DNA of 24,689 nt from Candidatus Limnocylindrales bacterium (lineage in GTDB: Bacteria > Chloroflexota > Limnocylindria > Limnocylindrales > CSP1-4), in the NCBI GenBank assembly GCA_046716225.1, contig JBKJXL010000028.1, forward strand, positions 1 to 24,689. The letters run 5' to 3'. Both the position numbers and the translations under genes were made by a program. The notes under the pieces are model-generated. The model did not search any database. It worked only from the letters and a program-made list of their open reading frames with translations, and was not told the origin of the DNA. Below, one piece after another: positions 6,473-22,337 of the stretch (the first letter of the stretch is position 1; each line of letters begins with the position of its first letter).

Positions 6473-8353
6473 ATGAGGTCGGTTCGACTGACGACTGGCC
6501 AGGCCATCATCCGCTTCATGGCCCAACAGTACGTGGAGCGCGACGAACGTCAGCAACGCTTCATCGCGGGCGTGTGGGGCATCTTCGGGCACGGTAACGT
6601 CGCCGGCCTCGGACAGGCGCTCGAGGAACTCGGCGACGCCGAGGAGATGCCCTACTACCGGCCCCAGAACGAACAGGGACAAGTGCACATCGCGGCCGCC
6701 TATGCGAAGCACCGGAACCGCCTGCAGACCTTCGCGTGCACGTCGTCGATCGGTCCCGGTGCCACCAACATGGTCACGGGCGCTGCCAGCGCGACGGTCA
6801 ACCGTATCCCCGTGCTGCTGCTTCCAAGTGACTACTTCGCCAACCGCGTCTCCGACCCGGTGCTCCAGCAGATCGAGCACCCCGCTGAGCACGATGTCAG
6901 TGCGAGCGACGCGTTCCGTCCTGTGTCACGGTTCTTCGATCGGATCTCACGGCCGGAGCAACTGATCGCGAGCCTGCCTGAGGCGTTCCGTGTCCTGACC
7001 GACCCGGTCGAGACCGGTGCGGTGACGGTGACACTTCCCGAGGACGTTCAGTCCGAGGCGTTCGACTGGCCCGAGCGCTTCTTTGAGCGCCGTGTCTGGC
7101 GAGTCCGCCGGCCCGTTCCGGAGCCGGCGGTCGTGGCGGACGTCGTTCGGTTGCTGACCGAGGCGGAGGCGCCCCTGATCATCACCGGTGGCGGGACGAT
7201 CTATGCCGAGGCCACCCGCGAACTGGACGCGTTCGCATCGCGGTTCGGGATCCCTGTCGCCGAGACCCAGGCCGGCAAAGGCGCCCTCTCGTGGAACAAG
7301 CCGATGAACGCCGGGCCGATCGGTGCGAACGGCGGCCTGGCCGCCAATCGGCTGGCGCGTGACGCGGACCTGATCCTGTGCCTGGGCACCCGGATGGGCG
7401 ACTTCGTGACCTCGTCACGCACCATGTTCCAGAATCCCCGCGCCCTGTTCGTCGGCATCAATGTCGCTCCCATGGACGCCCACAAGTTGCGGGCGTTCCC
7501 GCTCGTGGCGGACGCTCGCGAGGCTATCACCGCGATTTCAGCCGCGCTCGAGACCGCCGGCTACCGTGGGACGTCGGACGCCTATCAACAACGGATCGGC
7601 CAGCTCAAGACCGACTGGGACGCGATCGTCGCGGGACTCCGCACCGTCAACGGAGAACCAGGGGATCTTGGGCAGGCCGAGGTCATCGGCATCGTGAACG
7701 ACACCGTGGGCGGGAATGCCACGGTGATCTGCGCTGCTGGAAGTCTCCCCGGCGATCTGCTCAAGCTCTGGCGAGCTGAAGACTCCAAGGCCTATCACGT
7801 CGAGTACGGCTACTCCTGCATGGGCTACGAGGTCGCCGCCGGGCTGGGTGTGGCGCTCGCGGAACCCGGGCGTCGGGTCGTGGTCATGGTCGGAGACGGT
7901 TCCTACCTGATGCTGAACTCGGAGATCGTGACCGCGGTGGCCGAGGGTCTGAAGTTCACGATCGTCCTGCTGGACAACCACGGCTTCCAGTGCATCACCG
8001 GCCTCGCGCGATCGGTCGGCGTGCCGGATTTCGGGAACGACCTTCGCTTCCGCGACAAGGGACGCAACCGCCTGACCGGGCCGTATGTTCCGATCGACTT
8101 CCGCCAGCATGCGGAGGCGATGGGCGCTCTGGCGATCTTCGCCGCCACCGCGGACGAGCTGAAGGCTGCTCTGGAACGGGCCGATCAGGCCGACCGGGTC
8201 ACCGTGATCGTCGTGCCCACCGAGCCCGAGAAGCGCGTCCCCGGATTCGAGGGTTGGTGGGAAGTTCCCGCGGCGGAGGTGAGTGGTCAGGCGGGCGTCC
8301 GGGCCGCGCGCGACGCGTACGACAAGGCGCGCACCATGCAGCGGCTCGGGTGA
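6473..8353 (+). CDS. iolD: 3D-(3,5/4)-trihydroxycyclohexane-1,2-dione acylhydrolase (ThDP-dependent), copy 1, 626 aa
   Basis: RLTTGQA..F, GIFGHGNVAGLGQAL, NEQ, TSSIGPGATNMVT, AAGSLPGDL, HVEYGYSCMGYE, GDGSYLM..N. Confidence 0.92.
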   Translation: MRSVRLTTGQAIIRFMAQQYVERDERQQRFIAGVWGIFGHGNVAGLGQALEELGDAEEMPYYRPQNEQGQVHIAAAYAKHRNRLQTFACTSSIGPGATNMVTGAASATVNRIPVLLLPSDYFANRVSDPVLQQIEHPAEHDVSASDAFRPVSRFFDRISRPEQLIASLPEAFRVLTDPVETGAVTVTLPEDVQSEAFDWPERFFERRVWRVRRPVPEPAVVADVVRLLTEAEAPLIITGGGTIYAEATRELDAFASRFGIPVAETQAGKGALSWNKPMNAGPIGANGGLAANRLARDADLILCLGTRMGDFVTSSRTMFQNPRALFVGINVAPMDAHKLRAFPLVADAREAITAISAALETAGYRGTSDAYQQRIGQLKTDWDAIVAGLRTVNGEPGDLGQAEVIGIVNDTVGGNATVICAAGSLPGDLLKLWRAEDSKAYHVEYGYSCMGYEVAAGLGVALAEPGRRVVVMVGDGSYLMLNSEIVTAVAEGLKFTIVLLDNHGFQCITGLARSVGVPDFGNDLRFRDKGRNRLTGPYVPIDFRQHAEAMGALAIFAATADELKAALERADQADRVTVIVVPTEPEKRVPGFEGWWEVPAAEVSGQAGVRAARDAYDKARTMQRLG

Positions 8354-9243
8354 CCAAGGAGGGCGCTCCTTCGCCGTGCGCCGAGCTCGAGGCGCATGCG
8401 CGCCTCGGTCGCTGGCTCGTCATGAGCACCGTTGCAGGAAGCGGCGCCGGCCACGTCGGCGGACCTCTGTCGGCGATGGACATCTGGGTGGCCCTGTTCT
8501 TCCGGGTGTTGAGGATCCGTCCGGAGGAACCCGATTGGGCCGACCGCGACCGCTTCATCCTGTCGAAGGGTCACTCGGCGGTCGGGCTGTACGCGGTCAT
8601 GGCTCAGCGTGGCTACTTCCCGGTTGCCGAGTTGGCGACGTTCGACAGGGGCGACTCTCGATTGCAGGGCCACCCGGACATGACCCGCCTGCCCGGGCTC
8701 GACGCGTCCACCGGATCGCTCGGGCAGGGCCTGGCGGTGGGTGTCGGAATCGCGCTCGGCGCGAAACTCCGTGGCCGCGGCTTCGGCACGTTCGTGATGC
8801 TCGGTGACGGCGAATGCCAGGAGGGCATGGTCTGGGAGTCCGTTCAGGTCGCGGCCAGGTACGGCCTCGGCAACCTGACCGCGATCGTGGATCATAACGG
8901 CCTGCAGCAGTACGGCTGGCCGCTCGGAAACGACCCAAACCCTCGTGGCGACCGAAATGAGCCGTGGCCCGGAAGCAAGCTCCGCGACGTCTTTGAAGCG
9001 TTCGGCTGGCACGTGCTCGAGATCGATGGGCACGACTTCGACGAGATCGTACGCGCGTGTGCGGCGGCCCGCGAGGCAGCATCGGGCAGTCAGCCGACGG
9101 CGATTCTGGCCCGAACGATCAAGGGCCGAGGACTCTCCTTCACGGAGGGGCGCCACGCCTGGCACGCCCGGATCCCCACGCCCGACGAGCTCGAGACTGC
9201 CCGTGTCGAACTGGGCATCGATGCCTCTGGTCAGACCCGATGA
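8350..9243 (+). CDS. Split transketolase, N-terminal (ThDP-binding) subunit, about 297 aa
   Basis: GHVGG, DRDRFILSKGH, LQGHPD, STGSLGQG, GDGECQEG..N motifs; GTG start overlaps the iolD stop (GTGA). Confidence 0.9.
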   Translation: MTKEGAPSPCAELEAHARLGRWLVMSTVAGSGAGHVGGPLSAMDIWVALFFRVLRIRPEEPDWADRDRFILSKGHSAVGLYAVMAQRGYFPVAELATFDRGDSRLQGHPDMTRLPGLDASTGSLGQGLAVGVGIALGAKLRGRGFGTFVMLGDGECQEGMVWESVQVAARYGLGNLTAIVDHNGLQQYGWPLGNDPNPRGDRNEPWPGSKLRDVFEAFGWHVLEIDGHDFDEIVRACAAAREAASGSQPTAILARTIKGRGLSFTEGRHAWHARIPTPDELETARVELGIDASGQTR

Positions 9244-10184
9244 GGTCCCAACGTGAAACCTGGGGCGACACGCTGGCTGAGCTCGGCACGACGAATCCCG
9301 ACATCGTCGTGCTCGACGGGGACCTGGCCAACTCGACCAAAGCGGATATCTTCGCCAGGGCCCACCCGGAGCGCTTCCTCGAGATGGGGATTGCGGAACA
9401 GAACATGGTTGGTGTCGCGGTCGGCCTGGCAACCCTGGGTTTCGTCCCGTGGTTGTCCTCGTTCGCGGTCTTTCTGACCCATCGCTCGCTCGACCAGATT
9501 CGCATGCTCGTCGCCCAGCCGGGGGCGAACGTCAAGATCGGCGCCGCGTACGCCGGTCTGCTCACCGGGCTGACCGGGAAGACCCATCAGGACGTCCAGG
9601 ATCTGGCGAACATGCGGGCCATGCCCGGCATGACGGTGCTCGCGCCCGGTGACGAGGTCGAGTGTGCCGCGATGACCCGCTGGGCGACCGAGTTCACTGG
9701 CCCCGTCTACCTGCGCCTGACTCGCGATCCCACCCCGCCGCTGTTCGATGATTCGTACCGATTCGAACCGGGCCGAGTTCATCAACTGCGCGATGGGCGC
9801 GACGCCCTGCTGATCTCGACCGGTCCGCAGACCGGGCGCTGCATCGAAGCGGCTGCGCTGCTCGAGGCCACCGGCCTGTCCGTCGGGGTCCTCCATGTGC
9901 CGTCGATCAAGCCGATCGACGAGGCCGCCGTTGTGCGAGCCGCCCGTGGGTCGGATCTGCTCGTCACCGTTGAGGAACACAACGTCATCGGCGGGCTTGG
10001 CGGCCTGGTCGCGGAGATTCTCACGACGCGCTTGCCCAGGCGCCTCGTCCGGATTGGGATGGAGGACTCTTGGGGTGAGTCGGCGCCGAACGACTTCCTG
10101 CTCGAGAAGCACGGTCTGTCGGCGTCACGTGTCGCCGAGCGGGTGCTCGTCGAACTCAGGGTCGTTGTCGAGGAGAAGTCGTGA
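9240..10184 (+). CDS. Split transketolase, C-terminal (pyrimidine-binding plus C-terminal) subunit, 314 aa
   Basis: DGDLANST, FLEMGIAEQNMVG, THQ, MRAMPGM, GPVYLRL, TVEEHNVIGGLG; ATGA overlap with the upstream subunit. Confidence 0.9.
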   Translation: MRSQRETWGDTLAELGTTNPDIVVLDGDLANSTKADIFARAHPERFLEMGIAEQNMVGVAVGLATLGFVPWLSSFAVFLTHRSLDQIRMLVAQPGANVKIGAAYAGLLTGLTGKTHQDVQDLANMRAMPGMTVLAPGDEVECAAMTRWATEFTGPVYLRLTRDPTPPLFDDSYRFEPGRVHQLRDGRDALLISTGPQTGRCIEAAALLEATGLSVGVLHVPSIKPIDEAAVVRAARGSDLLVTVEEHNVIGGLGGLVAEILTTRLPRRLVRIGMEDSWGESAPNDFLLEKHGLSASRVAERVLVELRVVVEEKS

Positions 10185-11023
10185 ACAGAGAGCCGATCCG
10201 TCATCTCGCCTCGGGACCCGGGACCGGTACGGTCCTGGAGATCACCCCGGAGTCGATCGGATGGAAGTACATCAGCTCCAGCGTGGTGGCCCTTGGCGCG
10301 GGTCGGCGACACGAAGGGGACACCGGGCTCAACGAGGTCGCGATCGTCCCGCTTGTCGGGACCGCCGTCTTCGAATTCGCGGGGCAGACCCACACGGTCT
10401 CGCGCCGCGACGTCTTCACCGAGATGCCGCACGTGGCCTACCTGCCACCTCGGACGGCCTACACGATCACAGCGGTCGAGGCGTTTGAGTTCGCGTCGGG
10501 CGGCGTACCGGCCGAAGGGCGCCTCCCGGCGCGGCTCTTCACACCCGATGAGCTGCCGAGCTCGCTCCGCGGCGGCGTGAATGTCAGCCGCGGCGTGACC
10601 GGGACCCTCGACCTGAGTCTCCCGGCGGAACGCCTGCTCGCCTACGAGATCGTGACCCCGAGCGGGAACTGGTCGAGCTTTCCACCTCACCGCCATGACG
10701 GCACGAACGGGACCACCTATCACGAGGAGACGTACTACTTCCGACTCCAGCCTCGTGACGGCTTCGCGATCCAGCGGATTTACTCGCCCGAGAGCGAGCT
10801 CGACCTGTCGTTCTGCGCGCGAGATGGTGATCTCATCCTTGTCCACGAGGGGTACCACACGGTGGCGACCGCTCCAGGGACCAACGCGTACTACCTCAAC
10901 TTCCTCGGTGGCGACGTTCGCCCGGTGAGCCAGTACATCGACCCAGCCTACGCGTGGGTGGCCCAGGACTGGGAAGGTAGACCAGTCGGGATCCCCGTCG
11001 GAGGTCGTCGGGCCGCGGACTGA
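10181..11023 (+). CDS. iolB: 5-deoxy-glucuronate isomerase, 280 aa
   Basis: GNWSSFPPHRHD, HEETYYFR, QRIYS, GYHTVATAPG..YYLNFL cupin motifs; GTGA overlap. Confidence 0.9.
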   Translation: MNREPIRHLASGPGTGTVLEITPESIGWKYISSSVVALGAGRRHEGDTGLNEVAIVPLVGTAVFEFAGQTHTVSRRDVFTEMPHVAYLPPRTAYTITAVEAFEFASGGVPAEGRLPARLFTPDELPSSLRGGVNVSRGVTGTLDLSLPAERLLAYEIVTPSGNWSSFPPHRHDGTNGTTYHEETYYFRLQPRDGFAIQRIYSPESELDLSFCARDGDLILVHEGYHTVATAPGTNAYYLNFLGGDVRPVSQYIDPAYAWVAQDWEGRPVGIPVGGRRAAD

Positions 11024-11077: not shown

Positions 11078-11106
11078 TTGACGGGCGTGAGGTCGGATGC
11101 TACCGT
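11078..11106 (+). promoter_or_regulatory. Sigma70-like promoter for the aminotransferase-lacI-ABC operon
   Basis: TTGACG (11078-11083), 17-nt spacer, extended -10 TGcTACCGT ending at 11106; nearly identical to the promoter at 6410. Confidence 0.7.
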
Positions 11107-11110
11107 CCCC

Positions 11111-11126
11111 TGCAATCGGTTGCGCA
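11111..11126. promoter_or_regulatory. LacI-type operator, copy 2 (TGCAATCGGTTGCGCA)
   Basis: Identical to copy 1; 4 nt downstream of the -10 box. Confidence 0.85.
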
Positions 11127-11143: not shown

Positions 11144-12376
11144 ATGCCAGGACCAGGTCTCGATCTGCTCGGGTCGGAGGAGCTGGCCGAGGTCGCCGAG
11201 GTTCTGGCGAGTGGCCACCTCGCGCGGTATGGTCCCGACGACGACTCCTTTCCAGCCAAGGTGCGTCGGTTCGAGGAGCTCGTCGCCGAGCTGTCCCGGA
11301 CGAAGTACGCCCTGGCTCTCAACTCCGGCACGAGCGGCCTGTTCCTGGCCCTCGTCGGGCTCGGGATCGGACCAGGGGACGAGGTCATCGTGCCCGGCTT
11401 CACGTTCGTCGCCACGATCAGCTCGGTCATCTACGCGCGTGCCCGGCCGGTCCTCGCCGAGATCGATGACTCATTCAACCTCGACCCAAGGGACGTCGAG
11501 ACGCGCATCACGCCGCGGACGCGGGCGATCATCGTCGTCCACATGCTGGGCAACCCGGGGCGACTCGATGAGCTCAAGGTGGTCGCGGCACGGCACGGCC
11601 TCGCGCTCATCGAGGACGCCGCACAGGCCTTTGGCGCCACCTATCGCGGTCGCTGGGTCGGCGGTCAGGCGGAGGCCGGGGTCTACAGCTTCAACGAGTT
11701 CAAGACCATCACCTGCGGCGATGGCGGGATGCTGGTCACGGACGACGAGGACCTCTACAGGCGCGCCTTCGCCATGCACGACCAGGGACACAGCCCCAAC
11801 CGGCGCGGGATCGAGGTCGGCAATCGACCCTTCCTCGGGCTCAATTTCCGGATGACCGAGTTGCAGGGCGCGGTGCTGCTTGCCCAGGTGCGCCGGCTCG
11901 ACCGGATCCGGGACCACCTGCGGGCGAATCGCGATCTGGTCAAGGGCATCATCGGGGAGATCCCGGGGGTCGGCTTTCGGACGCTTCCGGATCCGGCAGG
12001 AGACCTCGCCACGCACCTCGTCGTCCTCTTTCCGGACGCCTCGACGGCCCGCGCGGTGACCGCGGAGTTGGGATCGATCACCCTGGCGTCATCGGGCTGG
12101 CATGTGTACAACCACATGGAGCACGTGCTGAGCGAACGGACCATCACCGGGCGCGGCTGTCCCTTTGACTGCGCTTGCACGGATGACCAGCCGACCGGAT
12201 ACCGGCCCGGGATGCTGCCCGAGACTGATCGGCTGCTTGACCGGTCGATGAGCTTCTCGATCGGCGTCCAGGATCCGAACCTCGCGCCGTTCGGCCTGCG
12301 GATGCGTGACGGCGCGGACGTCGCCCGCGCTCGGGCGGAGCAATTCCGCGCTGTCGCGTCACGCGTCCTGGCCTAG
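11144..12376 (+). CDS. DegT/DnrJ/EryC1/StrS family PLP-dependent aminotransferase, 410 aa
   Basis: NSGTSGL, GDEVIVPGFTFVAT, IEDAAQA (PLP Asp), SFNEFKTITCGDGG (Schiff-base Lys), GLNFRMTE. ATG 11144 follows GGAGGAAGG. Confidence 0.92.
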   Translation: MPGPGLDLLGSEELAEVAEVLASGHLARYGPDDDSFPAKVRRFEELVAELSRTKYALALNSGTSGLFLALVGLGIGPGDEVIVPGFTFVATISSVIYARARPVLAEIDDSFNLDPRDVETRITPRTRAIIVVHMLGNPGRLDELKVVAARHGLALIEDAAQAFGATYRGRWVGGQAEAGVYSFNEFKTITCGDGGMLVTDDEDLYRRAFAMHDQGHSPNRRGIEVGNRPFLGLNFRMTELQGAVLLAQVRRLDRIRDHLRANRDLVKGIIGEIPGVGFRTLPDPAGDLATHLVVLFPDASTARAVTAELGSITLASSGWHVYNHMEHVLSERTITGRGCPFDCACTDDQPTGYRPGMLPETDRLLDRSMSFSIGVQDPNLAPFGLRMRDGADVARARAEQFRAVASRVLA

Positions 12377-12393
12377 GACAGAGGCAGACCCTG

Positions 12394-13449
12394 ATGGCAG
12401 TCCGCGACGCCGCGCCGCATCGCCGGGTCGTCCTCGACGACGTCGCGCGGATGGCCAAGGTCTCGAGATCGACGGCGTCCCGCGCACTCGTTGACGATCC
12501 CCGGATCAGCGAGCCGACGCGCACCGCGGTTAAGCATGCCGCCAGCGAGCTCCAGTACGTTCCGAACGCGGCCGCTCGCAGCCTTCGTGCTCAACGGACC
12601 CGGATCCTCGGTCTCCTGCTGGCCAACTTGAGCGACCCGGTCCACGGGCAGATCGCCGCCGCGTTCGAGCAGGAGGCGGAGGCCGGCGGCTATCGGGTGA
12701 TCTTTGCCGCCGGCCTCCAGGACCCAGCGCTGGAGCGCAAGACCCTCAGCATCTTCACCGAACACGCGGCTGACGGAGTCGCGATGGTCTCCTGCGTCCT
12801 GGCTCCGAGCGAAGCCCGGGCGCGCGTTCGGCCCGACCGGCTGATCATCGTCCAGCCCGATCATCGCAGGGTGCAGCGGTACCGCGGCCCGCTCGTGCCC
12901 GGCGTGATCATGACTGACGACGCCAGCGGGGTCGAGGCGGTCGTCGATCACCTGGTGGCGACCGGTCACCGCGATATCGCCTACGTCGGAAGCGGCGCTC
13001 GCGCGTCGAGCACGGTGCATCGGGAAGCCGTCGGGCGAGCCCTCCAAAAGCATGGCATTCGTCCCCAGCTCGACCGCTTCCCGAGCCCGGACGACGCCTG
13101 GCGCGCTCCGGATGCCATCGCGACACTGATCGCCGCCGATCTGCCGGAGGCGCTGATCTGCTACGAGGACGTGCAGGCGCTCGCCCTGATGGACGCGTTG
13201 CGGCGCCTTGGCATCCAGACGCCCGACGATGTCGGCATCGTCGGCTTTGACGGAATCCTGTTCGCCGAGATGTCCAACCCACGCTTGACGACCGTGGCGA
13301 CCCCGCTGGCCGAGCTGGGGCGACTTGCGGCCTCGTCGCTGATCGGCGCCATCCAGACGGGGACGCTGCCCGAGGCCAGGGTCCTCCCAGTGCAGTTGGT
13401 CGTTCGCGAGAGCACGCGGTCGCGCGTCGCCCGGGAAGGCGAGGCGTAG
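12394..13449 (+). CDS. LacI family transcriptional regulator, 351 aa
   Basis: N-terminal HTH LDDVARMAKVSRSTASRAL, hinge YVPNAAARSL, C-terminal PDDVGIVGFDG..LTTV..LVVRES. Confidence 0.95.
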   Translation: MAVRDAAPHRRVVLDDVARMAKVSRSTASRALVDDPRISEPTRTAVKHAASELQYVPNAAARSLRAQRTRILGLLLANLSDPVHGQIAAAFEQEAEAGGYRVIFAAGLQDPALERKTLSIFTEHAADGVAMVSCVLAPSEARARVRPDRLIIVQPDHRRVQRYRGPLVPGVIMTDDASGVEAVVDHLVATGHRDIAYVGSGARASSTVHREAVGRALQKHGIRPQLDRFPSPDDAWRAPDAIATLIAADLPEALICYEDVQALALMDALRRLGIQTPDDVGIVGFDGILFAEMSNPRLTTVATPLAELGRLAASSLIGAIQTGTLPEARVLPVQLVVRESTRSRVAREGEA

Positions 13450-13452
13450 CGC

Positions 13453-14550
13453 GTGCCCGAGTCGCAACCCGCCATCGAGCTGATCGACGCGACCAAGCGC
13501 TACGGCGATGTCGTGGCACTCGACGGCGTCTCGCTCCAGATCGAACCGGGCGAGTTCTTCTGCCTCCTTGGACCGTCCGGCTGCGGGAAGACGACCACCC
13601 TCAACCTGATCGGTGGATTCCTCCCGCTGACGTCGGGCGAACTGCATATCGAGGGACGCCGGGTGAACGACCTGCCGCCCCACAAGCGCAACGTCAACAC
13701 GGTCTTCCAGAACTACGCCCTGTTCCCGCACATGAACGTCGCCCAGAACGTCGCGTTCGGGTTGCGAATGGCGGGCCTCGGCAAGGACGAGGTCGCCCGA
13801 CGGGTCGAGGAGTATCTGGACCTGGTCGGGCTGCTTGGCCACTCGGAGCGGTCACCGTCACAGCTCTCGGGCGGGCAGCAGCAGCGCGTCGCCCTGGCCC
13901 GTGCGCTGGCCAAACGGCCGGCGGTCCTCCTCCTCGACGAGCCGCTGGGCGCCCTCGACCTCAAGCTGCGTCACCAGATGCAGTTCGAGCTGGCCAGGAT
14001 CCACCGCCAGGTCGGGACGACCTTCGTGTTCGTGACACACGACCAGGAAGAGGCGCTCTCGATGTCCACCCGGATCGCCGTGATGTCGGGCGGCCGGGTC
14101 AGCCAGGTCGGCACCCCCCGCGAGATCTACTACAACCCCGTGGACCGCTTCGTGGCCGACTTCATCGGCGAATCGAACTTCCTCGCAGGTGCCGTCAGGC
14201 ACGAGGACGGCAGGCCCTGGTTCGTGCTCGAGAGCGGGGAGCGGATGCCCATCCCGGACGGGGCCGTGGAAGGACCGGCCACCGTGATGCTCCGGCCGGA
14301 ATCGCTCGTCGTGGGACCGGTCGGCAGCGCGCCCGGGCCGGCCATCACGGGCCGGATCCAGGGCATGGCGTTCATGGGCAATCACACGCGAGTCACAGTC
14401 AGCACGGCGGCGGGCGCCCTCGTCGTGCATCGACTCCACGGAGGCGGCGCAGGGCTTGGAGGTTCCGAGGGACAGATCGATGAGGAGGCATGCGTCTGGT
14501 GGTCACCCACGGAAGCGATCGTGATGGCAGAAACGGGAGCGAGGAGGTAA
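13453..14550 (+). CDS. ABC transporter ATP-binding protein, PotA/CysA type, 365 aa
   Basis: Walker A GPSGCGKT, VFQNYALFPHM, LSGGQQQRVALARAL, LLLDEP, FVTHDQEEAL, TOBE-like tail. Confidence 0.95.
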   Translation: MPESQPAIELIDATKRYGDVVALDGVSLQIEPGEFFCLLGPSGCGKTTTLNLIGGFLPLTSGELHIEGRRVNDLPPHKRNVNTVFQNYALFPHMNVAQNVAFGLRMAGLGKDEVARRVEEYLDLVGLLGHSERSPSQLSGGQQQRVALARALAKRPAVLLLDEPLGALDLKLRHQMQFELARIHRQVGTTFVFVTHDQEEALSMSTRIAVMSGGRVSQVGTPREIYYNPVDRFVADFIGESNFLAGAVRHEDGRPWFVLESGERMPIPDGAVEGPATVMLRPESLVVGPVGSAPGPAITGRIQGMAFMGNHTRVTVSTAAGALVVHRLHGGGAGLGGSEGQIDEEACVWWSPTEAIVMAETGARR

Positions 14551-14552
14551 CG

Positions 14553-15740
14553 ATGGATCCCATGGCTCGGAACAGGAACCTGACCCGGCGTCGTTTCCTG
14601 CAGGCGACGGCGGGAATCGGTGGTGTGGTCGCGTTCGGTGGCCTTGCGGCCGCGTGCTCGACCGGTGGCACCGGTACCAGTGCGGTGCCAGGTGCCAGCG
14701 CCGCGGCCGGCAGCAGCGCCGCGGCCGGCAGCAGCGCGGCGGCCGCGAGCCCAAAGGGCACCTTCAACTGGATGACCTGGAGCGATCACTACTACGAGGA
14801 GCAGCTCGCCGATATTGCGTCCACGAAGGAGATCAAGACCAGCGTCACCGAACTTGCCGACAACGCCGAAGGCTTCACCAAGGTCAAGGAGGTCGGCGGG
14901 CAGCTCGACATGATCTCGGGCGACGCGCTGTGGGTGCCGAAGTACTTCGAGGACGGGCTCATCGAGGCCTGGGACATCAACGAACTCCAGGTCGCGACGC
15001 AGCTCTACTCGATCGCTCGCGAGTTCGCCATCTGGACGAAGCCGGAGGGCTATCTCGGCTACCCGTTCGGGTGGTCGCCGGTCCAGCTCTACTACAACCC
15101 GAAGTTCGTCACCCCGACGCCCGACTCATGGGAGGTGCTGCTCGACCCCAAGTACAAGGGCCACATCGTCGTTGAGAACCAGCCCGTCGAGATCGTGGCC
15201 TACATGGCCAAGCTCGCCGGCGCGAAGGATCCGTACAACATGACCGCGGACGAGCTCGCCAAGGCGAGGGACCTGTTGACGCGCCTCAAGCCGAACCTCC
15301 TCAAGCTCACCCAGCAGAACACCGAGACGATCACCGCGCTGGTCAACGAGGAGGCCTGGATCGCAACCGGCAACCTGGGCGCCGAGGAACGGGTCAAGGA
15401 GGCCGGCGGACCCGAGGTGCTGGGCTTCACCCCGAAAGAGGGCACCGTCGGCTGGATGGACGCGGAGATGCTGGTCAAGGGCGGCAAGAACAACAACCTG
15501 CTCAAGCCCTTCCTGGAGGTCGCCGAGCAGGCGCCATACATCGCCGAGAACTTCATCAAGTACGGTCGCCCGCTGTTCAACGAAGCCGCCTACAAGCTGC
15601 TCGTCGACAAGGGCCAGAAGGACCGCGCCGACCGCTTCCTGTACAACAAGCCGGAGACGGTCCTGGCGATGACGCTCAAGGGCCCCGGGTCGTCGACCCA
15701 GGGCGCGATCGACGCCTTCAACGAGGTCTTCGGGGCCTAG
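14553..15740 (+). CDS. Tat-exported lipoprotein substrate-binding protein, PotD/PotF-like, 395 aa
   Basis: TRRRFL twin-arginine signal, LAAAC lipobox, WMTWSDHY, PDSWEVLLDPKYKG, PKEGTVGWMD; GAGGAGG SD before ATG 14553. Confidence 0.85.
   Translation: MDPMARNRNLTRRRFLQATAGIGGVVAFGGLAAACSTGGTGTSAVPGASAAAGSSAAAGSSAAAASPKGTFNWMTWSDHYYEEQLADIASTKEIKTSVTELADNAEGFTKVKEVGGQLDMISGDALWVPKYFEDGLIEAWDINELQVATQLYSIAREFAIWTKPEGYLGYPFGWSPVQLYYNPKFVTPTPDSWEVLLDPKYKGHIVVENQPVEIVAYMAKLAGAKDPYNMTADELAKARDLLTRLKPNLLKLTQQNTETITALVNEEAWIATGNLGAEERVKEAGGPEVLGFTPKEGTVGWMDAEMLVKGGKNNNLLKPFLEVAEQAPYIAENFIKYGRPLFNEAAYKLLVDKGQKDRADRFLYNKPETVLAMTLKGPGSSTQGAIDAFNEVFGA
14697..14750 (+). repeat. 18-bp tandem repeat, 2 exact copies plus 1 degenerate (SAAAGS linker)
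   Basis: AGCGCCGCGGCCGGCAGC at 14697 and 14715; AGCGCGGCGGCCGCGAGC at 14733. Confidence 0.85.
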
Positions 15741-15760
15741 CCGCCAAGTACACCCGCATC

Positions 15761-16681
15761 ATGTCCCGTCTCACCGTCCAGCGTGAGCTGCCCGCGCCGC
15801 TCGTCCAACTCGGGCGGGCGGCCCGGATCGACCGCCTATGGCGACTTGCGCCGGCCATGCCGGGAGCGGTGGCGCTGGTCCTCCTGTTCCTCGCGCCAAT
15901 GGCCTTCATGCTGGTCTTCAGCTTCTGGCGGACGGACGTCGACTTCAACCTGGTTCCGGACTGGAACCTGAACAACTACCTCAAGTTCTTCACCGTCCCG
16001 ACCTACATCCGGACCTTCCTCAAGACGATGCTGATGGCGGCTGCCGTCACGGCGGCCGGGCTCGCCGCCGCCATTCCTTTCACCTATTTCCTTGTCCGCT
16101 ACGTCAGCCGTCGATGGCAGCGCCTGGTCCTGCTGGCGGTCATCGTGCCGTTCTGGACGAGCTACCTGCTGCGCGTCTACGCGTGGCAGGCGATCCTGGG
16201 TGAGCGGGGCGCGCTCAACCAGGCCCTCCAGGCCCTCGGCATCCTCGACGAACCCTCGCGCCTGTTCGTCTACAACGACGTCGGGGTGTTCATCGTCCTG
16301 GTATACGTCTACTTCCCATTCGCGGCGCTCGCGCTTTACGCGGCGATGGAGAAGTTCGACTTCAGCCAGCTGCATGCGGCGCAGGACCTGGGAGCGCGGC
16401 CGGACCAGGCGTTCCGGCACATCCTGGTGCCGCAGATCCGGTCGGGGATCATCACGGCCAGCATCTTCATGTTCATCCCAATCCTGGGCGAGTTCCTGAC
16501 GCCGACCCTCGTCGGCGGCGTCCAGGGTTCGCTGATCGCGAATCTCGTCGTCAACTTCTTCCGCGGGGCGCAGATCGCCCAGGGTGCGGCCTTCGCGATC
16601 ATCATCGCCCTGTTCGTCACCGCGCTGCTGGTCGTCTTCCGCAAGTACCTGCGGATCGAGGACGTGGTCGCCCGTGGCTAG
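15761..16681 (+). CDS. ABC transporter permease, PotB-like, 306 aa
   Basis: Hydrophobic helices; VPFWTSYLLRVYAW, EAA-like loop LHAAQDLGARP, FIPILGEF. Confidence 0.92.
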   Translation: MSRLTVQRELPAPLVQLGRAARIDRLWRLAPAMPGAVALVLLFLAPMAFMLVFSFWRTDVDFNLVPDWNLNNYLKFFTVPTYIRTFLKTMLMAAAVTAAGLAAAIPFTYFLVRYVSRRWQRLVLLAVIVPFWTSYLLRVYAWQAILGERGALNQALQALGILDEPSRLFVYNDVGVFIVLVYVYFPFAALALYAAMEKFDFSQLHAAQDLGARPDQAFRHILVPQIRSGIITASIFMFIPILGEFLTPTLVGGVQGSLIANLVVNFFRGAQIAQGAAFAIIIALFVTALLVVFRKYLRIEDVVARG

Positions 16682-17522
16682 GCGCGTCGACCCGCTCGAG
16701 ACGATGCCGGTCAGCCCTTATGCCCGGCCCACGCGCTGGGCGCTCTGGCTTTGGGCCGCAGCCATCCTCGTCTTCCTCTATCTGCCGATCGGGTTCCTGG
16801 TGCTCTTTTCGTTCAACGAGCCGCGGACGCCGGGCCTGCCGATCGTCGGCCTCACACTGCACTGGTATGAGGTGGCGGCCGGCAACAGCATCCTCCTGGA
16901 CGCGGTGAAGAACTCGATCATCGTGGCGGCGGCCGTGGCGGGGATCGCGACGCTCATCGGCACGATGGCGGCCTTCCCACTGGTCCGTGGCGGGATCCGT
17001 CATGCCGATGCCGTCCGGATCGTCGCGACGATGCCGATCATGCTGCCCGGGATTCTCCTGGGGATCGCGATGCTGATCTTCTTCCGCCGTGTGCTGGACC
17101 TCGAGTTGTCGCTCCTGACCGTGATCGCTGGGCACCTCGTGTTCACCACGCCGTTCGTCGTGTTGATCGTTGCGGCGCGGCTCCAGGGCTTCGACCGCAG
17201 ACTCGAGTGGGCGGCCGCCGATCTAGGGGCCAGTCCGCGCCAGACTCTCCGATACGTCATCCTTCCGCTCATCTCGCCGGCGATCGTCGCGGGGGCGCTC
17301 ATCAGCGTCACCCTGTCGATCGACGAGTTCATCATCACGTTCTTCACGGTGGGACCGCAAGTGACTCTTCCGCTCTACATCTACACCCAGATCAAGTTCG
17401 GGGTAACGCCCGAGTTGAACGCCGTGGCGACCGTGCTGTTGGTCGCGACGATCGGCCTGCTGCTCGGCGCCGGACTGGTCATGCGCGGCGGTCGAAGATT
17501 CCTGAAACGAGCCGCGCGATGA
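16674..17522 (+). CDS. ABC transporter permease, PotC-like, about 282 aa
   Basis: FLYLPI..LVLFSFN, LEWAAADLGASP, SVTLSIDEF, TLPLYIY..PELNA. Start GTG 16674 (alternative ATG about 16704). Confidence 0.92.
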   Translation: MARRVDPLETMPVSPYARPTRWALWLWAAAILVFLYLPIGFLVLFSFNEPRTPGLPIVGLTLHWYEVAAGNSILLDAVKNSIIVAAAVAGIATLIGTMAAFPLVRGGIRHADAVRIVATMPIMLPGILLGIAMLIFFRRVLDLELSLLTVIAGHLVFTTPFVVLIVAARLQGFDRRLEWAAADLGASPRQTLRYVILPLISPAIVAGALISVTLSIDEFIITFFTVGPQVTLPLYIYTQIKFGVTPELNAVATVLLVATIGLLLGAGLVMRGGRRFLKRAAR

Positions 17523-18526
17523 TGCGCGCCGCCGTCTTCGTCGGGACCGGCGAGCTGCGCCTCGAGGACCGCCCGGAACCACGCATCGAGCTCGCCGATG
17601 ACGTCCTGATCGCCGTCGAGGCGTGCGGGATCTGTGGCAGCGACCTCCAGATCCTCAACGTGCCGCCTGGGCACCCGGCGACGCCCGGCACGATCCTCGG
17701 GCATGAGTTCGTCGGGCGTGTCCAGGACGTGGGCGAGACCGTCAGCGCCGTGCAGGTCGGCGAGCGCGTGGTCGTGGACCCGGACCCGAAGTGCGGCGCA
17801 TGCACCTCGTGCCGGGCGGGCAGGCCCGCCAACTGCGAGAACATTCGCGCGCTCGGCGTCTATCGCGACGGTGGCCTGGCCGGTTTCGTGATTGCGCCGG
17901 CGGCGGCCATATATCCGATCTCGGACGACGTGCCGGCGACGCTCGCGTCGCTGGTCGAGCCGCTGGCGTGCGTCATCAACGGCACGAATCGGGCGGCGAT
18001 CAGGCCGGGGGAATCTGTCGTGGTCATGGGCGCGGGCACGATCGGCTGCCTGTTCGCCGCGGTATTCAAGGCCGCCGGAGCCGGACCGATCATCGTGGTC
18101 GAGCCGAACCCTGTTCGCGCCGCGGTCGCTCGAGCCGTGGCGGCAGACGTCACCTTGACCCCGGACGAGTTCGCCGCACGTCGGACCGAACTCCTTCCGC
18201 GCGGGGCCGACGTCGTGGTGGATGCCGTCGGCAGCGTGCTTGGCCCGGCCATCGAGGCCGCGGCGATGGGCGGACGGGTCGTCCTGTTCGGCATGAACGG
18301 GGCGGCGCGGCCACCGATCCACCAGGTCGAGATCACGGAAAAGGGTCTCGCCATCCTGGGGTCGTACATCTCGAACTTCACCTTCCCGACTGCCATTCGG
18401 CTGGTCGAGAGCGGCACGCTCAACCTCGCGCCGATCGTCTCCGCCGTCCTGCCGCTGAGTCAGACGCTCGACGGGATCGCTCGCCTCCGGTCGGGCGAGG
18501 CCACGAAGATCGTCATTACGCCCTGA
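17519..18526 (+). CDS. Zn-dependent medium-chain alcohol/polyol dehydrogenase, 335 aa
   Basis: CGICGSD, GHEFVG, four-Cys structural Zn site CGACTSC..PANC, GAGTIG, acidic VEP (NAD preference); ATGA overlap with the permease. Confidence 0.92.
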   Translation: MMRAAVFVGTGELRLEDRPEPRIELADDVLIAVEACGICGSDLQILNVPPGHPATPGTILGHEFVGRVQDVGETVSAVQVGERVVVDPDPKCGACTSCRAGRPANCENIRALGVYRDGGLAGFVIAPAAAIYPISDDVPATLASLVEPLACVINGTNRAAIRPGESVVVMGAGTIGCLFAAVFKAAGAGPIIVVEPNPVRAAVARAVAADVTLTPDEFAARRTELLPRGADVVVDAVGSVLGPAIEAAAMGGRVVLFGMNGAARPPIHQVEITEKGLAILGSYISNFTFPTAIRLVESGTLNLAPIVSAVLPLSQTLDGIARLRSGEATKIVITP

Positions 18527-18556: not shown

Positions 18557-19552
18557 TCAGGCCTCTTCGTAGATCTCGGGATTGGCGATGTTCGGGGCTC
18601 GGCCGCCGGCAAGGACCGCGGCCATGCCCTCGGCCATCTCCTCAAAGGTGCGGCGTCTGCCGCGCCTGGACAGGCCGAGCACGTGCGGCGTCAGGACCAC
18701 GGCCGGATGCCCAAAGATCGGGTGCCCCTCGGGCGGTGGCGGCTCCGGCTCGTAGACATCGAGACCGACACCCGACAGGCGACCGTCCAGCAACGCCGCA
18801 TGGACGGCGTCGAGGTCGAGCAGGCCGCCCCTGCCGCAGTTGACCAGGACGGTCCCGGGCCGAACCCGAGCCAACAGCCCGGCGCCCACGAGATCGGTGG
18901 TCTCCGCGGTCAGGGGCGCGTGAAGACTGATCACATCGGCGGTTTCGACCAGCCGCACGAGATCGACCAGCTCGACCCCCATCCTGGCCGCGATCTTCGG
19001 GTCCGCGTACGGGTCGAACGCCACGATCCGCATGCCGAGGACCGTGCACAGCTCGGCCAGCCGGCGCCCGATCCGCCCGAAGCCGACGATGCCGAGCGTC
19101 GCCCCGTCCAGATCGCCGAGCTCGACCGACTCACGCTCGGCCCAGCGGCCCGCGCGGACCAGCTCGGTCAGCGGACCCAGCCGCTTGATCAGGTGCAGGA
19201 TGTGGGCGAGCGCGCCCTCGGCCACGGCGTTCGTGCCCGCACCGGGCGTGACGACGACGGGGATGCCTCGCTCACTCGCCGCGGTCAGATCGACCAGCTC
19301 GACACCGATCCCGCTCCGCCCGATGACCCGGAGCCGCGGGGCCGCCGCGATCAGCGGCCGGTCGACGACACTGTTGCCGCGGGCGATCAGGGCAATCGCC
19401 TCCGGCAGGAGCCCGGCGAGCGATGCGCCGTCCTGGGTCGCCTCGACGATGTCACCGAATGCGCGCAGCCGGTCCGCGACGAGCGTGTCGACCGGGCCCA
19501 ACGCCAGGATCGGCCCGCGCGGGAGCTCGGTGTCCGCTCCCGACCCGGTCAC
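18557..19552 (-). CDS. D-isomer-specific 2-hydroxyacid dehydrogenase (SerA/hydroxypyruvate reductase-like), 331 aa
   Basis: AVAEGAL, GIVGFGRIG, FDPY, SLHAPLT, VNCGRGG, LDVYEPEP, LTPHVLG. Confidence 0.9.
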   Translation of the reverse strand: MTGSGADTELPRGPILALGPVDTLVADRLRAFGDIVEATQDGASLAGLLPEAIALIARGNSVVDRPLIAAAPRLRVIGRSGIGVELVDLTAASERGIPVVVTPGAGTNAVAEGALAHILHLIKRLGPLTELVRAGRWAERESVELGDLDGATLGIVGFGRIGRRLAELCTVLGMRIVAFDPYADPKIAARMGVELVDLVRLVETADVISLHAPLTAETTDLVGAGLLARVRPGTVLVNCGRGGLLDLDAVHAALLDGRLSGVGLDVYEPEPPPPEGHPIFGHPAVVLTPHVLGLSRRGRRRTFEEMAEGMAAVLAGGRAPNIANPEIYEEA

Positions 19553-19589
19553 CGTCTTCGTCTCCGGGCCGCCGACCGCGCCCGGGCGT

Positions 19590-20390
19590 TCACAGCCCGG
19601 TCAGGGCCGCGCCGGCCGTCCCGGCGCGTGGCACGGCGGCCCTGAAGCTCATCACGGCTTGTTGCGCTGCGAACGCGAGCGAGGTCGAGTCTGAGCCTAC
19701 GGCCACGAAGGTGAATCCCTCCTCGGCATAGCGGACTGCCGCTTCGGCGGTTCCCGCGAGGATGCCGGCCGCGATGTCGGCTGACTCGGCAGCCCGACTG
19801 ACCCGGGCCAGCGCATCCCGAAATGTCGGATGGTCCAGGCGACCCGGGATCCCCAGGGCGTGGGTCAGATCTCGTGGGCCCACGAAGAGGACATCGACTC
19901 CTGGGACCCGGGCGATCTCCTCGACCGCCTCGACGGCGGCGACACTCTCGATCTGGACGACCGCAACGATGAGATTTCCGGCCGTCTCGAGCCTCTCGGG
20001 GAAGAGTCCAAAGCCGATCGACCGGTTGTAGGTCGCCACGCCTCGGTCGCCGTCAGGCGGGTAGTGGAGGTGACGGACCGCCGCGGCGACTTCGTCAGCG
20101 GACTCGAGACGGGGGAACATCACGCCCGCCGCGCCCGCGTCGAGGACACGGCCGGAGCGGATGCGACTCGCACTTTCGACCCGCACGAGAACGGGCACGT
20201 CGTGGGCTGCCCCCGCGAGGAGCTGTCCGAGGGCGCCGTCCTCGCCGCGGCCGCCGTGCTCGAGGTCGATGAGCAGCCAGTCGAAGCCGGCCAGGGCACA
20301 TGCCTCCGCAGCGAGTGGGCTGCCGAGGTTCAGGAACGTGCCGATCAGCGGGACGCGGCCACGGACCCGCTCGCGGAGCGTGTCATCCAT
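19590..20390 (-). CDS. HpcH/HpaI family class II aldolase, about 266 aa
   Basis: GFDWLLIDLEHG, VLVRV, LDAGAAGVMFP, HYPPDGDRG, VQIES, DVLFVGPRDL. Start 20390, alternatively 20417. Confidence 0.88.
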   Translation of the reverse strand: MDDTLRERVRGRVPLIGTFLNLGSPLAAEACALAGFDWLLIDLEHGGRGEDGALGQLLAGAAHDVPVLVRVESASRIRSGRVLDAGAAGVMFPRLESADEVAAAVRHLHYPPDGDRGVATYNRSIGFGLFPERLETAGNLIVAVVQIESVAAVEAVEEIARVPGVDVLFVGPRDLTHALGIPGRLDHPTFRDALARVSRAAESADIAAGILAGTAEAAVRYAEEGFTFVAVGSDSTSLAFAAQQAVMSFRAAVPRAGTAGAALTGL

Positions 20391-20404
20391 TCCCGGTCCG
20401 GTGA

Positions 20405-22321
20405 TCACCCGTGCCATCGCTGGCTCGCCAGGCCCTGCTCGTACTCGTCTCGTCGCTCCCTGACCTCGGGCAGGATTGAGGTTTCGGCCGAGGCGACGTC
20501 CCACCAGACACCGGCAGGCGGCAGGTTCACGTCGGGATTCGTCGGTACCACGATGACGCTCGGACCCGGGTAGGCGCGGGCGTCGCCCAGTGCCGTGCGA
20601 ACGGCGTCCGGCGTGGTCGCGCGCGTCGCGCGGGCGCCGAGGCCCGCGGCCAGTGCCACGAGATCGAGATCGAGGTACTCGCCGTCCAGGGCAGCCTCAG
20701 TCAACGGTCCCGTCCGCTTCCGGAACTCGTTCCCGAAGCCTGCACCGTTGCGCATCAGCTGCAGTCGACGGATGACCTGGAACCCGTGGTTCTCGGAGAT
20801 CACCACCGTCACATTCAAGCCCTCCTGGAGGGCCGTGACCAGCTCTGTCGGCTGCATGAGAAAGGTCCCGTCGCCGATCAGGGCGATGACCGCGCCCTGG
20901 CTCTGTGCCAGGCGCACGCCGAGGGTTGCCGGCAGCTCGTAGCCCATGCACGAGTATCCGAATTCGAGGTGGCATGACCTCCCGCCCGTGGCGTCCCAGA
21001 CCTTGAGGAGATCGCCGGGGGGTCCACCGGCGGCGGCGACGATCGTGTCGCCCGGTAGGGCCGCTTCCTGGAGGACGCCGATCAGCTGACCCTGGGTCAT
21101 CAGCGTCGTCTCGGCTGCCTCGGCCCCCTCGGCAAGTCGCTCCGGCTCGGGGGGCGCCAGGGCGTCGGCGCGAATCGGCAGCCAGGTGGCCTTGACGGCT
21201 CGGGCGCGCGTCTCCCACTCGGGTTGCGGTCGAGTGCCTGCCTCGCGGGCTGCGGCGCGGAGGGCCAGCAAGGCGCGGCGGGCGTCGGCGACGATCGGCA
21301 CGGCGCCCTGCTTGCGCGCGTCATGGTCGGTCACGTTGACCGAGGCGAACCGGACATCGGGATCCGCGAAGATCGACTGCGAGGCGGTCGTGAAGTCCGT
21401 CAAGCGTGTGCCGACGTGAAGAATGAGGTCGGCTTCGGCAGCCAGGGCGTTGGCCGCCGGATTGCCCTCCACGCCGATGCCACCCATGCCCCACCACGCA
21501 TCCTTCTGGACGGCGCCCTTGCCCGCGAATGTCTCGGTGACCGGGATCCCGAACTCCGCGGCGAGCGCGGCCAGCTCCGCGATCGCGTCCGAGTAGTGGA
21601 CGCCCCCGCCGGCGACGACCAGCGGACGCCGGGCGATGGCCAGCATGCCAGCCACGATCGCCACGTCGTCGAGATCTGGCGCAGGCCGCGCGATCGTCCA
21701 GTCGCGCGGCGCGAAGAAGGCCGCCGGGTAGTCGTGCGCCTCGGTCTGGACGTCCTGGGGCAAGGCGATCACGACCGCTCCCATCTCGGATGGGCTGGTC
21801 AGGACGCGCATCGCTTCGGGCAGCGCCGTCAGGAGCTGCTCCGGACGGGTGATCCGGTCGAAGTAGCGAGCGACCGGCCGGAAGCAGTCGTTCACGCTCA
21901 CATCACCGGCCGACGGGTTCTCGAGCTGCTGGAGGACCGGCCCCTGGCGGCGGGTCGCATAGGTGTCGCCCGGGAGGAGGAGCACCGGCAGCCGGTTGAT
22001 CGTGGCCAGCGCGGCGCCGGTCACCATGTTCGTTGCGCCGGGGCCGATCGACGCGGTCACGGCGAGCAGGGCACGCCGACGCGAGGCCTTGGCATATGCC
22101 GTGGCCACGTGGACGAGCGACTGCTCGTTGCGGCCCTGGATGTAGGGCATGTCCGTGCGGAACTCGTCCAGCGCCTGGCCAAGGCCGGCGACGTTGCCGT
22201 GACCAAAGATCCCGAGCATGGCGGGGACCGAACGCCGACGTTCGCCATCGGCGACGCTGTACTGCTGGCCGAGGTAGCGAACGACCGCCTGCGCCATGGT
22301 CAATCGCACCGTCGTCGACAT
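20405..22321 (-). CDS. iolD: Trihydroxycyclohexane-1,2-dione acylhydrolase (IolD), copy 2, 638 aa
   Basis: TVRLTMAQA, GIFGHGNVAGLGQAL, NEQ, SIGPGATNMVT, GGPPGDL, HLEFGYSCMGYE, GDGTFLM; AGGAGG SD. Confidence 0.9.
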   Translation of the reverse strand: MSTTVRLTMAQAVVRYLGQQYSVADGERRRSVPAMLGIFGHGNVAGLGQALDEFRTDMPYIQGRNEQSLVHVATAYAKASRRRALLAVTASIGPGATNMVTGAALATINRLPVLLLPGDTYATRRQGPVLQQLENPSAGDVSVNDCFRPVARYFDRITRPEQLLTALPEAMRVLTSPSEMGAVVIALPQDVQTEAHDYPAAFFAPRDWTIARPAPDLDDVAIVAGMLAIARRPLVVAGGGVHYSDAIAELAALAAEFGIPVTETFAGKGAVQKDAWWGMGGIGVEGNPAANALAAEADLILHVGTRLTDFTTASQSIFADPDVRFASVNVTDHDARKQGAVPIVADARRALLALRAAAREAGTRPQPEWETRARAVKATWLPIRADALAPPEPERLAEGAEAAETTLMTQGQLIGVLQEAALPGDTIVAAAGGPPGDLLKVWDATGGRSCHLEFGYSCMGYELPATLGVRLAQSQGAVIALIGDGTFLMQPTELVTALQEGLNVTVVISENHGFQVIRRLQLMRNGAGFGNEFRKRTGPLTEAALDGEYLDLDLVALAAGLGARATRATTPDAVRTALGDARAYPGPSVIVVPTNPDVNLPPAGVWWDVASAETSILPEVRERRDEYEQGLASQRWHG

Positions 22322-22337
22322 GCGGCGTGCCCTCCTG

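Follow-up and report, generated by a model that had tools for sequence, protein, structure and literature searches.

The classical bacterial route for inositol is the myo-inositol pathway of Bacillus subtilis (IolG, E, D, B, C, J and A). An amine-bearing cyclitol is known to pass through it in Sinorhizobium meliloti, whose moc genes degrade the rhizopine scyllo-inosamine via the iol pathway; the step that removes the amino group there has not been defined, nor has a function been assigned to MocC (PMC10107442). Amination of cyclitol rings is familiar from the biosynthesis of aminoglycoside cores, in which DegT-type aminotransferases (StsC, BtrR, NeoB) work alongside a Zn-dependent 2-deoxy-scyllo-inosamine dehydrogenase. 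How bacteria remove the amino group of an inosamine is not established. In the open literature we found no aminotransferase-based pathway for the catabolism of inosamines or other aminocyclitols and none that degrades aminoglycoside cores, nor did we find any publication on the use of inositol by Limnocylindria. Here we analyzed a stretch of 24,689 bases (the window) from a Candidatus Limnocylindrales bacterium. The window is the entire contig JBKJXL010000028.1 of a 2.16-Mb metagenome-assembled genome (MAG; GCA_046716225.1) that is 62% complete. It carries a seven-gene operon (11144-18526) for an aminotransferase, a LacI-type repressor, an importer and a Zn-dependent dehydrogenase, placed among inositol (iol) genes. 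The module is real, conserved and co-regulated, and catabolism of an amino-cyclitol is the best available reading of it, partly supported by our results.

The seven genes are tightly packed on the + strand, with intergenic gaps of -1 to 22 nt (Table 1). Pfam and NCBIfam profiles, used to annotate every gene-like open reading frame (ORF) in the window, confirmed the composition proposed in a first-pass annotation made from the sequence: a DegT aminotransferase, LacI, a polyamine-type ATP-binding cassette (ABC) transporter and a Zn dehydrogenase in one operon. That annotation had also put the operon under the iol operator, and rightly so. A 16-nt LacI-type operator, TGCAATCGGTTGCGCA, occurs three times in the window (0 of 100 shuffles gave three sites). 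The promoter/operator block in front of the aminotransferase gene duplicates the block at 6410-6457 in front of iolD (TTGACG-N17/18-TACCGT-operator). Note that a generic sigma-70 promoter scan did not report this block, because the match to the -10 element is too weak. The LacI protein encoded in the operon is presumably the binder of all three operators. As the first-pass annotation had further stated, genes for nucleotide-sugar formation, glycosyl transfer and cyclisation are missing: no nucleotidyltransferase, glycosyltransferase or sugar-phosphate cyclase was found among the annotated ORFs of the window. The assignment of the seven genes to a catabolic, LacI-controlled unit is supported.

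The operon directly follows the gene series iolD-tktN-tktC-iolB (6473-11023, + strand), with iolD at its head, which is presumed to be the sink for the deaminated ring. We determined how often these functions are inherited together in 151 genomes of the class with a completeness of at least 85%, using a threshold of E <= 1e-60 for the aminotransferase. The aminotransferase was present in 12 of the 151 genomes and IolD in 51; all 12 aminotransferase genomes were IolD-positive. Homologs of the binding protein of the importer likewise occurred in 12/151 genomes. An 867-aa PHP/CehA-like hydrolase, encoded on the other side of iolD, was present in 10/151, with 9 of those 10 being aminotransferase-positive. 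Nine genomes contained the trio of aminotransferase, binding protein and hydrolase. In the eight trio genomes besides that of the window, the genes for these three proteins and IolD are clustered within some 25 kb of a single contig. Note that co-occurrence is given as counts without a statistical test, because related genomes do not count as independent observations. Two genomes marked as unpublished entered only the tallies of IolD and of methylmalonate-semialdehyde dehydrogenase (MMSDH), and no conclusion rests on them.

A survey of 67 species-representative loci with a called aminotransferase ortholog gave a similar picture at the level of gene neighborhoods. Genes for IolD, IolB, IolC, IolJ-like proteins or transketolase were located no more than 10 kb from the aminotransferase gene in 43/67 loci. 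A Pot-like importer was found in 24/67 and a PHP/CehA-like protein in 26/67, and a LacI gene adjoined the aminotransferase gene or lay in the cluster in 26/67. The immediate upstream neighbor of the aminotransferase (AT) was IolD in 15 of the 67 loci, and the downstream neighbor was an IolC-type kinase in 15. A frequent gene order was hydrolase< >IolD-AT-IolC-IolB-IolJ(DeoC type)-EamA-TIM-LacI-IolG, followed by a second hydrolase< >PotA-SBP-PotB (SBP, substrate-binding protein). The aminotransferase was accompanied by a kinase/aldolase lower pathway in 16 loci and by a transketolase lower pathway in 9, indicating that the enzyme is not tied to the product of either. A functional tie of the operon to the iol ring-cleavage genes is supported by co-location, shared operators, and co-occurrence at the genome and locus level.

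Similar to the B. subtilis system, the window encodes IolD and IolB that score above the curated cut-offs, IolG- and IolE-like proteins, and repressor control through a regulator site shared with the aminotransferase operon. Unlike B. subtilis, it has a split transketolase in place of IolC, IolJ and IolA; annotation of all gene-like ORFs in the window revealed no IolC kinase, IolJ aldolase or IolA, although IolC- and IolJ-like genes occur in related loci. The window also adds a second, divergent IolD with an HpcH aldolase, as well as the aminotransferase, the Zn dehydrogenase and the PHP-like hydrolase, and its importer is of the polyamine/opine type, not the sugar type. With the moc genes the window shares Gfo/Idh/MocA-type and MocC-like TIM-barrel genes. 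In contrast, the moc system comprises the RbsB-type MocB, the regulator MocR and MocDEF, and has no DegT aminotransferase. No Peripla_BP_4 binding protein, GntR/MocR regulator or Rieske/ferredoxin gene was found among the window genes. Thus, the cluster behaves like an iol regulon to which a feeder has been added, and it is not a rhizopine moc cluster.

We next consider the aminotransferase. At 410 aa it has the length of all its close homologs, and it belongs to the DegT/DnrJ/EryC1/StrS family. K187, which forms the Schiff base with pyridoxal 5'-phosphate (PLP), and the PLP-binding residues D158 and Q161 are invariant in 41 orthologs, identifying the protein as an aminotransferase and not a His-type dehydratase. 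In a phmmer search against the PDB, the best match was KdnA of Shewanella oneidensis (5k8b; 8-amino-3,8-dideoxy-D-manno-octulosonate transaminase) with 268 bits, aligned end to end. The perosamine synthases came next (191 bits). The 2-deoxy-scyllo-inosose aminotransferases scored 166 (5w70) and 131 bits (2c7t), and a scyllo-inositol transaminase entry (7b0d) 137 bits. The structural model (predicted local distance difference test score, pLDDT, 88.6) led to the same enzyme: the best Swiss-Prot fold match in Foldseek was KdnA (E 1e-37, template modelling scores 0.88/0.91, 33% identity), with the alignment spanning residues 4-374 of 410. EryC1, KanB, TbmB, StsC, NeoB, BtrR, ArnB and the perosamine synthases all followed at E 1e-28 to 1e-30. 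Membership in the StsC/BtrR/NeoB clade of inosose aminotransferases was rejected, as KdnA is far closer and the inosose enzymes score no better than nucleotide-sugar enzymes in either search. The first-pass annotation had invoked enzymes of this type, a comparison that failed, while its own caveat that the protein looked nearer to KdnA than to BtrR proved correct in sequence and fold.

Judged by its sequence, the aminotransferase is KdnA-like, of a type that does not use nucleotide sugars, with the catalytic lysine intact. The likeness to KdnA makes it less probable that the enzyme is an StsC or BtrR, not that it can deaminate an inosamine. KdnA itself uses a free sugar. Unlike the window enzyme, however, it is biosynthetic, has the Fe-dependent alcohol dehydrogenase KdnB as its partner and serves the modification of 3-deoxy-D-manno-octulosonate (Kdo) in lipopolysaccharide. 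No Fe-dependent alcohol dehydrogenase or Kdo gene was found among the window genes, whose setting is iol catabolism. The maximum-likelihood tree of the aminotransferase has two deep clades, both found in iol/Pot/hydrolase contexts, and the non-iol contexts are nested within them.

The non-iol orthologs, at 68-74% identity, form two groups. In the first (five loci), the gene has a DUF4432 gene and one for an RbsB-type binding protein as neighbors; in three of these loci the ORF adjoining the aminotransferase gene was inspected and is not hydrolase-like. The second group (five loci in MAGs of Actinomycetota) has an EamA transporter beside the aminotransferase, with an LLM oxidoreductase as well in three. 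More distant, plasmid-borne homologs (36-47% identity) were found in biosynthetic contexts only (lipopolysaccharide, nonribosomal peptide synthetase or heptose), none of them iol-linked. Two DegT paralogs, one from each deep clade, occur in a single cyclitol supercluster in two cases (L026/L076 and L014/L049, each pair on one contig). The L026/L076 supercluster also holds a class-III aminotransferase. Its three aminotransferases could reflect diamine substrates or several amine substrates.

The importer has the architecture of the polyamine/opine/phosphonate class, with a PotA-like ATPase carrying a TOBE domain, a pair of permeases similar to PotB and PotC, and a binding protein of the PotD class. 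The latter has a twin-arginine (Tat) signal (RRRFLQ) followed by a lipobox (LAAAC), indicating that it is an exported uptake receptor. It aligns weakly with PotD and PotF (47 bits, HMMER). The protein keeps W-S-D-(H) at the position of W-S-D-Y in PotF, a Glu at the position of PotD E171, and W-M-D at PotD W255-M-D257. At the position of PotF W244/D247 it has G-N-L-G-A. W244/D247 marks one end of the putrescine pocket in PotF; roles were assigned to the pocket residues after the PotD and PotF structures. W76, D78, H79, D124, W127, E208, D303 and E305 are invariant in 26 orthologs of the binding protein. Compared with PotABCD and PotFGHI, the window system shares the four components, the TOBE domain of the ATPase and the W-S-D and W-M-D motifs, but scores below the equivalog cut-offs, appears to have the distal half of the polyamine pocket replaced and contains extra invariant acidic residues. 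The predicted pocket, acidic and aromatic with one polyamine end rewritten, fits a cationic amine other than a simple polyamine, which agrees with the presence of an aminotransferase in the operon. From its sequence, the importer looks built for a cationic amine.

The Zn dehydrogenase, which closes the transporter operon in many related loci, has both zinc sites of the medium-chain family: catalytic Cys/His/Glu ligands and a four-Cys structural site, along with GAGTIG and an NAD-type fingerprint, as read from the sequence. Its best NCBIfam match is IolM (scyllo-inosose 3-dehydrogenase; 211 bits vs a cut-off of 450), with threonine dehydrogenase second. IolM of Thermotoga maritima acts on a cyclitol ring; its partners IolN and IolO were not recognised. 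Aminotransferase and Zn dehydrogenase belong to the same superfamilies as StsC/BtrR/NeoB and 2-deoxy-scyllo-inosamine dehydrogenase, and the chemistry would be the same if reversed. In contrast to aminoglycoside core biosynthesis, 2-deoxy-scyllo-inosose synthase and glycosyltransferases are missing from the window, and the context is catabolic.

Taken together, we consider it slightly more probable than not that the operon is a feeder for an amine-bearing cyclitol (inosamine-type or a small conjugate) into the inositol pathway. In favor of this are the operon anatomy with its duplicated promoter/operator block, the co-occurrence in genomes and loci with either lower pathway, the contexts of both deep aminotransferase clades and the motifs of the binding protein. 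In addition, KdnA as the nearest relative uses a free sugar, all PLP residues are present, and IolM, the best curated family for the dehydrogenase, acts on an inosose ring. An aminocyclitol is the best inference for the substrate class, within which 2-deoxystreptamine, streptamine and scyllo-inosamine are not told apart. Of the amino-cyclitol catabolic module put forward by the first-pass annotation, the catabolic LacI unit, the tie to iol, the amine-type importer and the intact aminotransferase of non-nucleotide-sugar type stand, and the StsC/BtrR affiliation falls. More tentative, and to us rather doubtful, is the specific proposal that abundant uncultured soil and sediment Chloroflexota have a dedicated route for aminocyclitols (inosamine, streptamine/2-deoxystreptamine core), with the biosynthetic aminotransferase and Zn-dehydrogenase chemistry reversed and the ring delivered to IolD.

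We infer the following sequence of steps. The Tat-exported PotD/PotF-class lipoprotein would bind the protonated amine, which the PotABC-like transporter would import. The KdnA-like PLP enzyme would transfer the amine nitrogen onto a 2-oxo acid and so produce a keto-cyclitol (inosose). The oxidation state of the ring would be set by the Zn dehydrogenase in concert with the IolG-like one; the former could generate a 1,2-dione directly from a deoxy-inosose or oxidise a second position of a diamine for renewed transamination. The IolE-like dehydratase and IolD would then open the ring, and IolB and the split transketolase would take the carbon onward; the genes for this step are assigned by curated family models. 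One LacI repressor may shut all units by binding the three near-identical operator sites, which overlap promoter-like sequences. The PHP/CehA-like hydrolase would probably strip a phosphate, carbamoyl or acyl substituent or split a conjugate. As a special case, deamination of 2-deoxy-scyllo-inosamine would yield 2-deoxy-scyllo-inosose. Oxidation of the hydroxyl next to the ketone could then produce a trihydroxy-cyclohexane-1,2-dione of the IolD-substrate type, bypassing IolE.

Several points weigh against such a feeder. KdnA, the nearest characterised enzyme, aminates an exocyclic aldehyde rather than a ring ketone, and the known inosose aminotransferases are no closer to the window enzyme than nucleotide-sugar ones. 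All Pot-type matches are below the curated cut-offs, as is the IolM match of the dehydrogenase. The binding protein resembles PotD only weakly, and the pocket argument leans on residue roles carried over from the PotD/PotF structures. Some orthologs of the aminotransferase are found in non-iol contexts, accompanied either by an RbsB-type binding protein or by an LLM oxidoreductase plus EamA. The co-inherited 867-aa hydrolase has no assigned role; it implies an extra hydrolytic step, which the reading of the first-pass annotation leaves out. Moreover, the source genome is an incomplete MAG, the argument is drawn from genes and the substrate is a predicted one, and free aminocyclitols are not known as abundant compounds of sediment or soil.

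The aminotransferase might instead, like KdnA, take an open-chain aldehyde or keto acid as its substrate. It could deaminate an imported omega-amino sugar acid to an iol intermediate, or convert 5-deoxyglucuronate, 2-deoxy-5-keto-gluconate or a semialdehyde further down the pathway to and from the corresponding amine. No other characterised enzyme comes nearly as close as KdnA, which has a free sugar-acid aldehyde as its substrate; the plasmid-borne homologs adjoin alcohol-oxidising enzymes, implying aldehyde substrates; and IolD, the commonest upstream neighbor, makes an aldehyde acid. However, the enzyme occurs with both the kinase/aldolase and the transketolase lower pathway and so is not specific for the product of either, the co-inherited amine-type importer suggests an external amine, and the presence of IolD in 12/12 aminotransferase genomes fits a product that enters at or above IolD. 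We regard an open-chain substrate as unlikely.

The hydrolase bears on a second alternative of comparably low probability, in which the imported compound is a conjugate of inositol with an amino sugar or amino alcohol, such as glucosaminyl-inositol from mycothiol or glycosylphosphatidylinositol-type glycans, or a phosphodiester. The hydrolase would free the inositol and the aminotransferase would deaminate the part that is not a cyclitol. No signal peptide was detected in the 867-aa protein, which was called cytoplasmic. The predicted structure (pLDDT 80) comprises beta domains at the N terminus, a PHP barrel (residues 481-700), an immunoglobulin (Ig)-like domain and a helical hairpin at the C terminus. 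With VIA-align, the barrel matched 3e38 and 2anu (Z 17) and PsfC (Z 15.7). Residues 9-256 resemble the aziridine-forming AziU3/U2 pair (Z 12.2, 21% identity). Neither match revealed a function. A Foldseek search with the whole model returned only noise from the Ig-like domain, and the ESM Atlas only unnamed clusters. Based on the model, the hydrolase probably cleaves an ester, phosphoester or carbamate. Many related clusters hold two paralogs of it, one facing iolD and the other facing potA.

In favor of a conjugate substrate, the hydrolase, with its barrel of the PHP phosphoesterase type, is co-inherited with aminotransferase and importer in 9 of its 10 genomes. The clusters are also rich in Gfo/Idh/MocA and TIM-barrel genes of the kind that cleaves keto-glycosides, and conjugates of inositol with amino sugars are far commoner in soil than free aminocyclitols. 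On the other hand, no glycosidase, amino-sugar kinase, deaminase or deacetylase was found among the window genes, no PHP enzyme is known to be a glycosidase, and nothing links the aminotransferase to hexosamines.

It is quite improbable that the module is biosynthetic or unrelated to inositol use, with an importer for ordinary polyamines and an aminotransferase that makes an inosamine to serve as signal, solute or cell component. Most enzymes of the DegT family are biosynthetic, and some orthologs occur with an LLM oxidoreductase and an EamA-type exporter. MosB forms scyllo-inosamine from inosose (PMC10107442). Nevertheless, the operon and the catabolic iol units have the operator and promoter block in common, presumably under a single LacI repressor; glycosyltransferase, cyclase and tailoring genes are missing from the window; and half of the polyamine pocket appears to be lost in the binding protein.

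A role of the aminotransferase in place of IolA, converting malonate semialdehyde to beta-alanine, would suit the aldehyde amination by KdnA-like enzymes, the lack of an IolA-type gene in the window and related clusters and the lack of an over-cut-off MMSDH in this incomplete genome, but was rejected as highly improbable. An MMSDH over the cut-off is encoded elsewhere in the genome in 9/9 genomes sampled from this genus and in each of the ten genomes of the family that have the aminotransferase, and its lack of a match here is best put down to genome incompleteness. In the sister family f3, IolD is over the cut-off in 31/38 genomes, yet an MMSDH/IolA-type gene is present in only 1/38 and the aminotransferase in 1/38, so that the aminotransferase does not track IolA absence.

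If the operon does feed an amino-cyclitol into the inositol pathway, it would define for the first time how an inosamine is deaminated in catabolism, open the inositol pathway to cyclitols that bear nitrogen and constitute a natural sink for aminoglycoside cores. The gene set for such a route would be small, consisting of one aminotransferase, a binding protein, a Zn dehydrogenase, a hydrolase and a repressor with its operator, in a widespread uncultured soil/sediment lineage. The binding protein and a ligand-responsive LacI/operator pair would then be usable as sensors. Should the substrate differ, amine importer, KdnA-like aminotransferase and PHP-like hydrolase would remain a conserved trio that points to a feeder of IolD not described before.

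Table 1. Genes and regulatory sites called in the window, ordered by position.
Feature	Position	Strand	Match or remark
F420-type LLM oxidoreductase	about 880-1840	-	
IolG-like Gfo/Idh/MocA dehydrogenase	1891 to about 2910	-	TIGR04380, 310 bits vs cut-off 355
Xylose-isomerase-like TIM-barrel protein	2919-3790	-	AP_endonuc_2, E 1e-50
PHP/CehA-McbA-like metallohydrolase, 867 aa	3790-6393	-	NF038032 domain, 147 bits
Operator TGCAATCGGTTGCGCA, copy 1	from 6442	+	in front of iolD1
iolD1, ring-cleaving thiamine diphosphate-dependent hydrolase	6473-8353	+	TIGR04377, 880 bits vs cut-off 715
Split transketolase tktN / tktC	about 8392-9243 / 9240-10184	+	
iolB	10181-11023	+	TIGR04378, 234 bits vs cut-off 205
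Promoter-like block: TTGACG, 17 nt, TACCGT, then operator	11078-11126	+	read from sequence
LacI-type 16-nt operator TGCAATCGGTTGCGCA	11111-11126	+	in front of aminotransferase gene
DegT_DnrJ_EryC1 aminotransferase, KdnA-like, 410 aa	11144-12376	+	PF01041, E 9e-82
LacI-family repressor	12394-13449	+	LacI helix-turn-helix and Peripla_BP_3 domains
ABC ATPase with TOBE domain, PotA-like	13453-14550	+	ABC_tran and TOBE_2; PotA best NCBIfam match, 361 bits vs cut-off 482
Substrate-binding lipoprotein, polyamine/opine/phosphonate type	14553-15740	+	SBP_bac_6; weak PotD/PotF matches
PotB-like permease	15761-16681	+	BPD_transp_1; PotB 163 bits, below cut-off
PotC-like permease	16704-17522	+	BPD_transp_1; PotC 205 bits, below cut-off; start set at first ATG past potB stop
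Zn-dependent medium-chain dehydrogenase	17522-18526	+	ADH_N and ADH_zinc_N; start overlaps potC stop by 1 nt
Second operon: 2-hydroxyacid dehydrogenase, HpcH aldolase, second IolD, aldehyde dehydrogenase	18557-23819	-	
Operator, copy 3	23813-23828	-	one mismatch; near IolE-like gene at contig end
IolE-like dehydratase, cut by contig end	23920-24687	+	TIGR04379, 118 bits on truncated protein, below cut-off

The window has a high G+C content (66-72%), and genes were therefore called by third-position G+C first and by family models second. No complete tRNA was found in the whole window with ARAGORN. Nearly all close protein homologs and nearly all of the 79 related loci belong to MAGs from soil, sediment and freshwater that carry the label Chloroflexota, Limnocylindrales or Limnocylindria. 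Near-identical DNA was found in sediment and soil metagenome runs; the sequencing runs carrying the locus were of sediment and soil DNA only, with no RNA run among them.

The genes for the IolG-like dehydrogenase and the TIM-barrel protein (1891-3790, - strand) are located downstream of the hydrolase gene. The second IolD (TIGR04377, 781 bits vs a cut-off of 715) is divergent, sharing about 46% identity with IolD1. A quick tree placed the IolD proteins adjacent to HpcH in two groups with long branches, outside the canonical IolD clade, one of the window type and the other from eight related loci, L026, L049 and L076 among them. Six related clusters contain a cytochrome P450, possibly for the demethylation of O-methyl cyclitols. 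In four others, an acetoin-dehydrogenase-like E1/E2 complex and a PF04199 'cyclase'-family hydrolase are encoded beside the aminotransferase. The split transketolase (8392-10184) lies between iolD and iolB; related loci have the transketolase pair, the IolC/DeoC-type pair or both (three loci).

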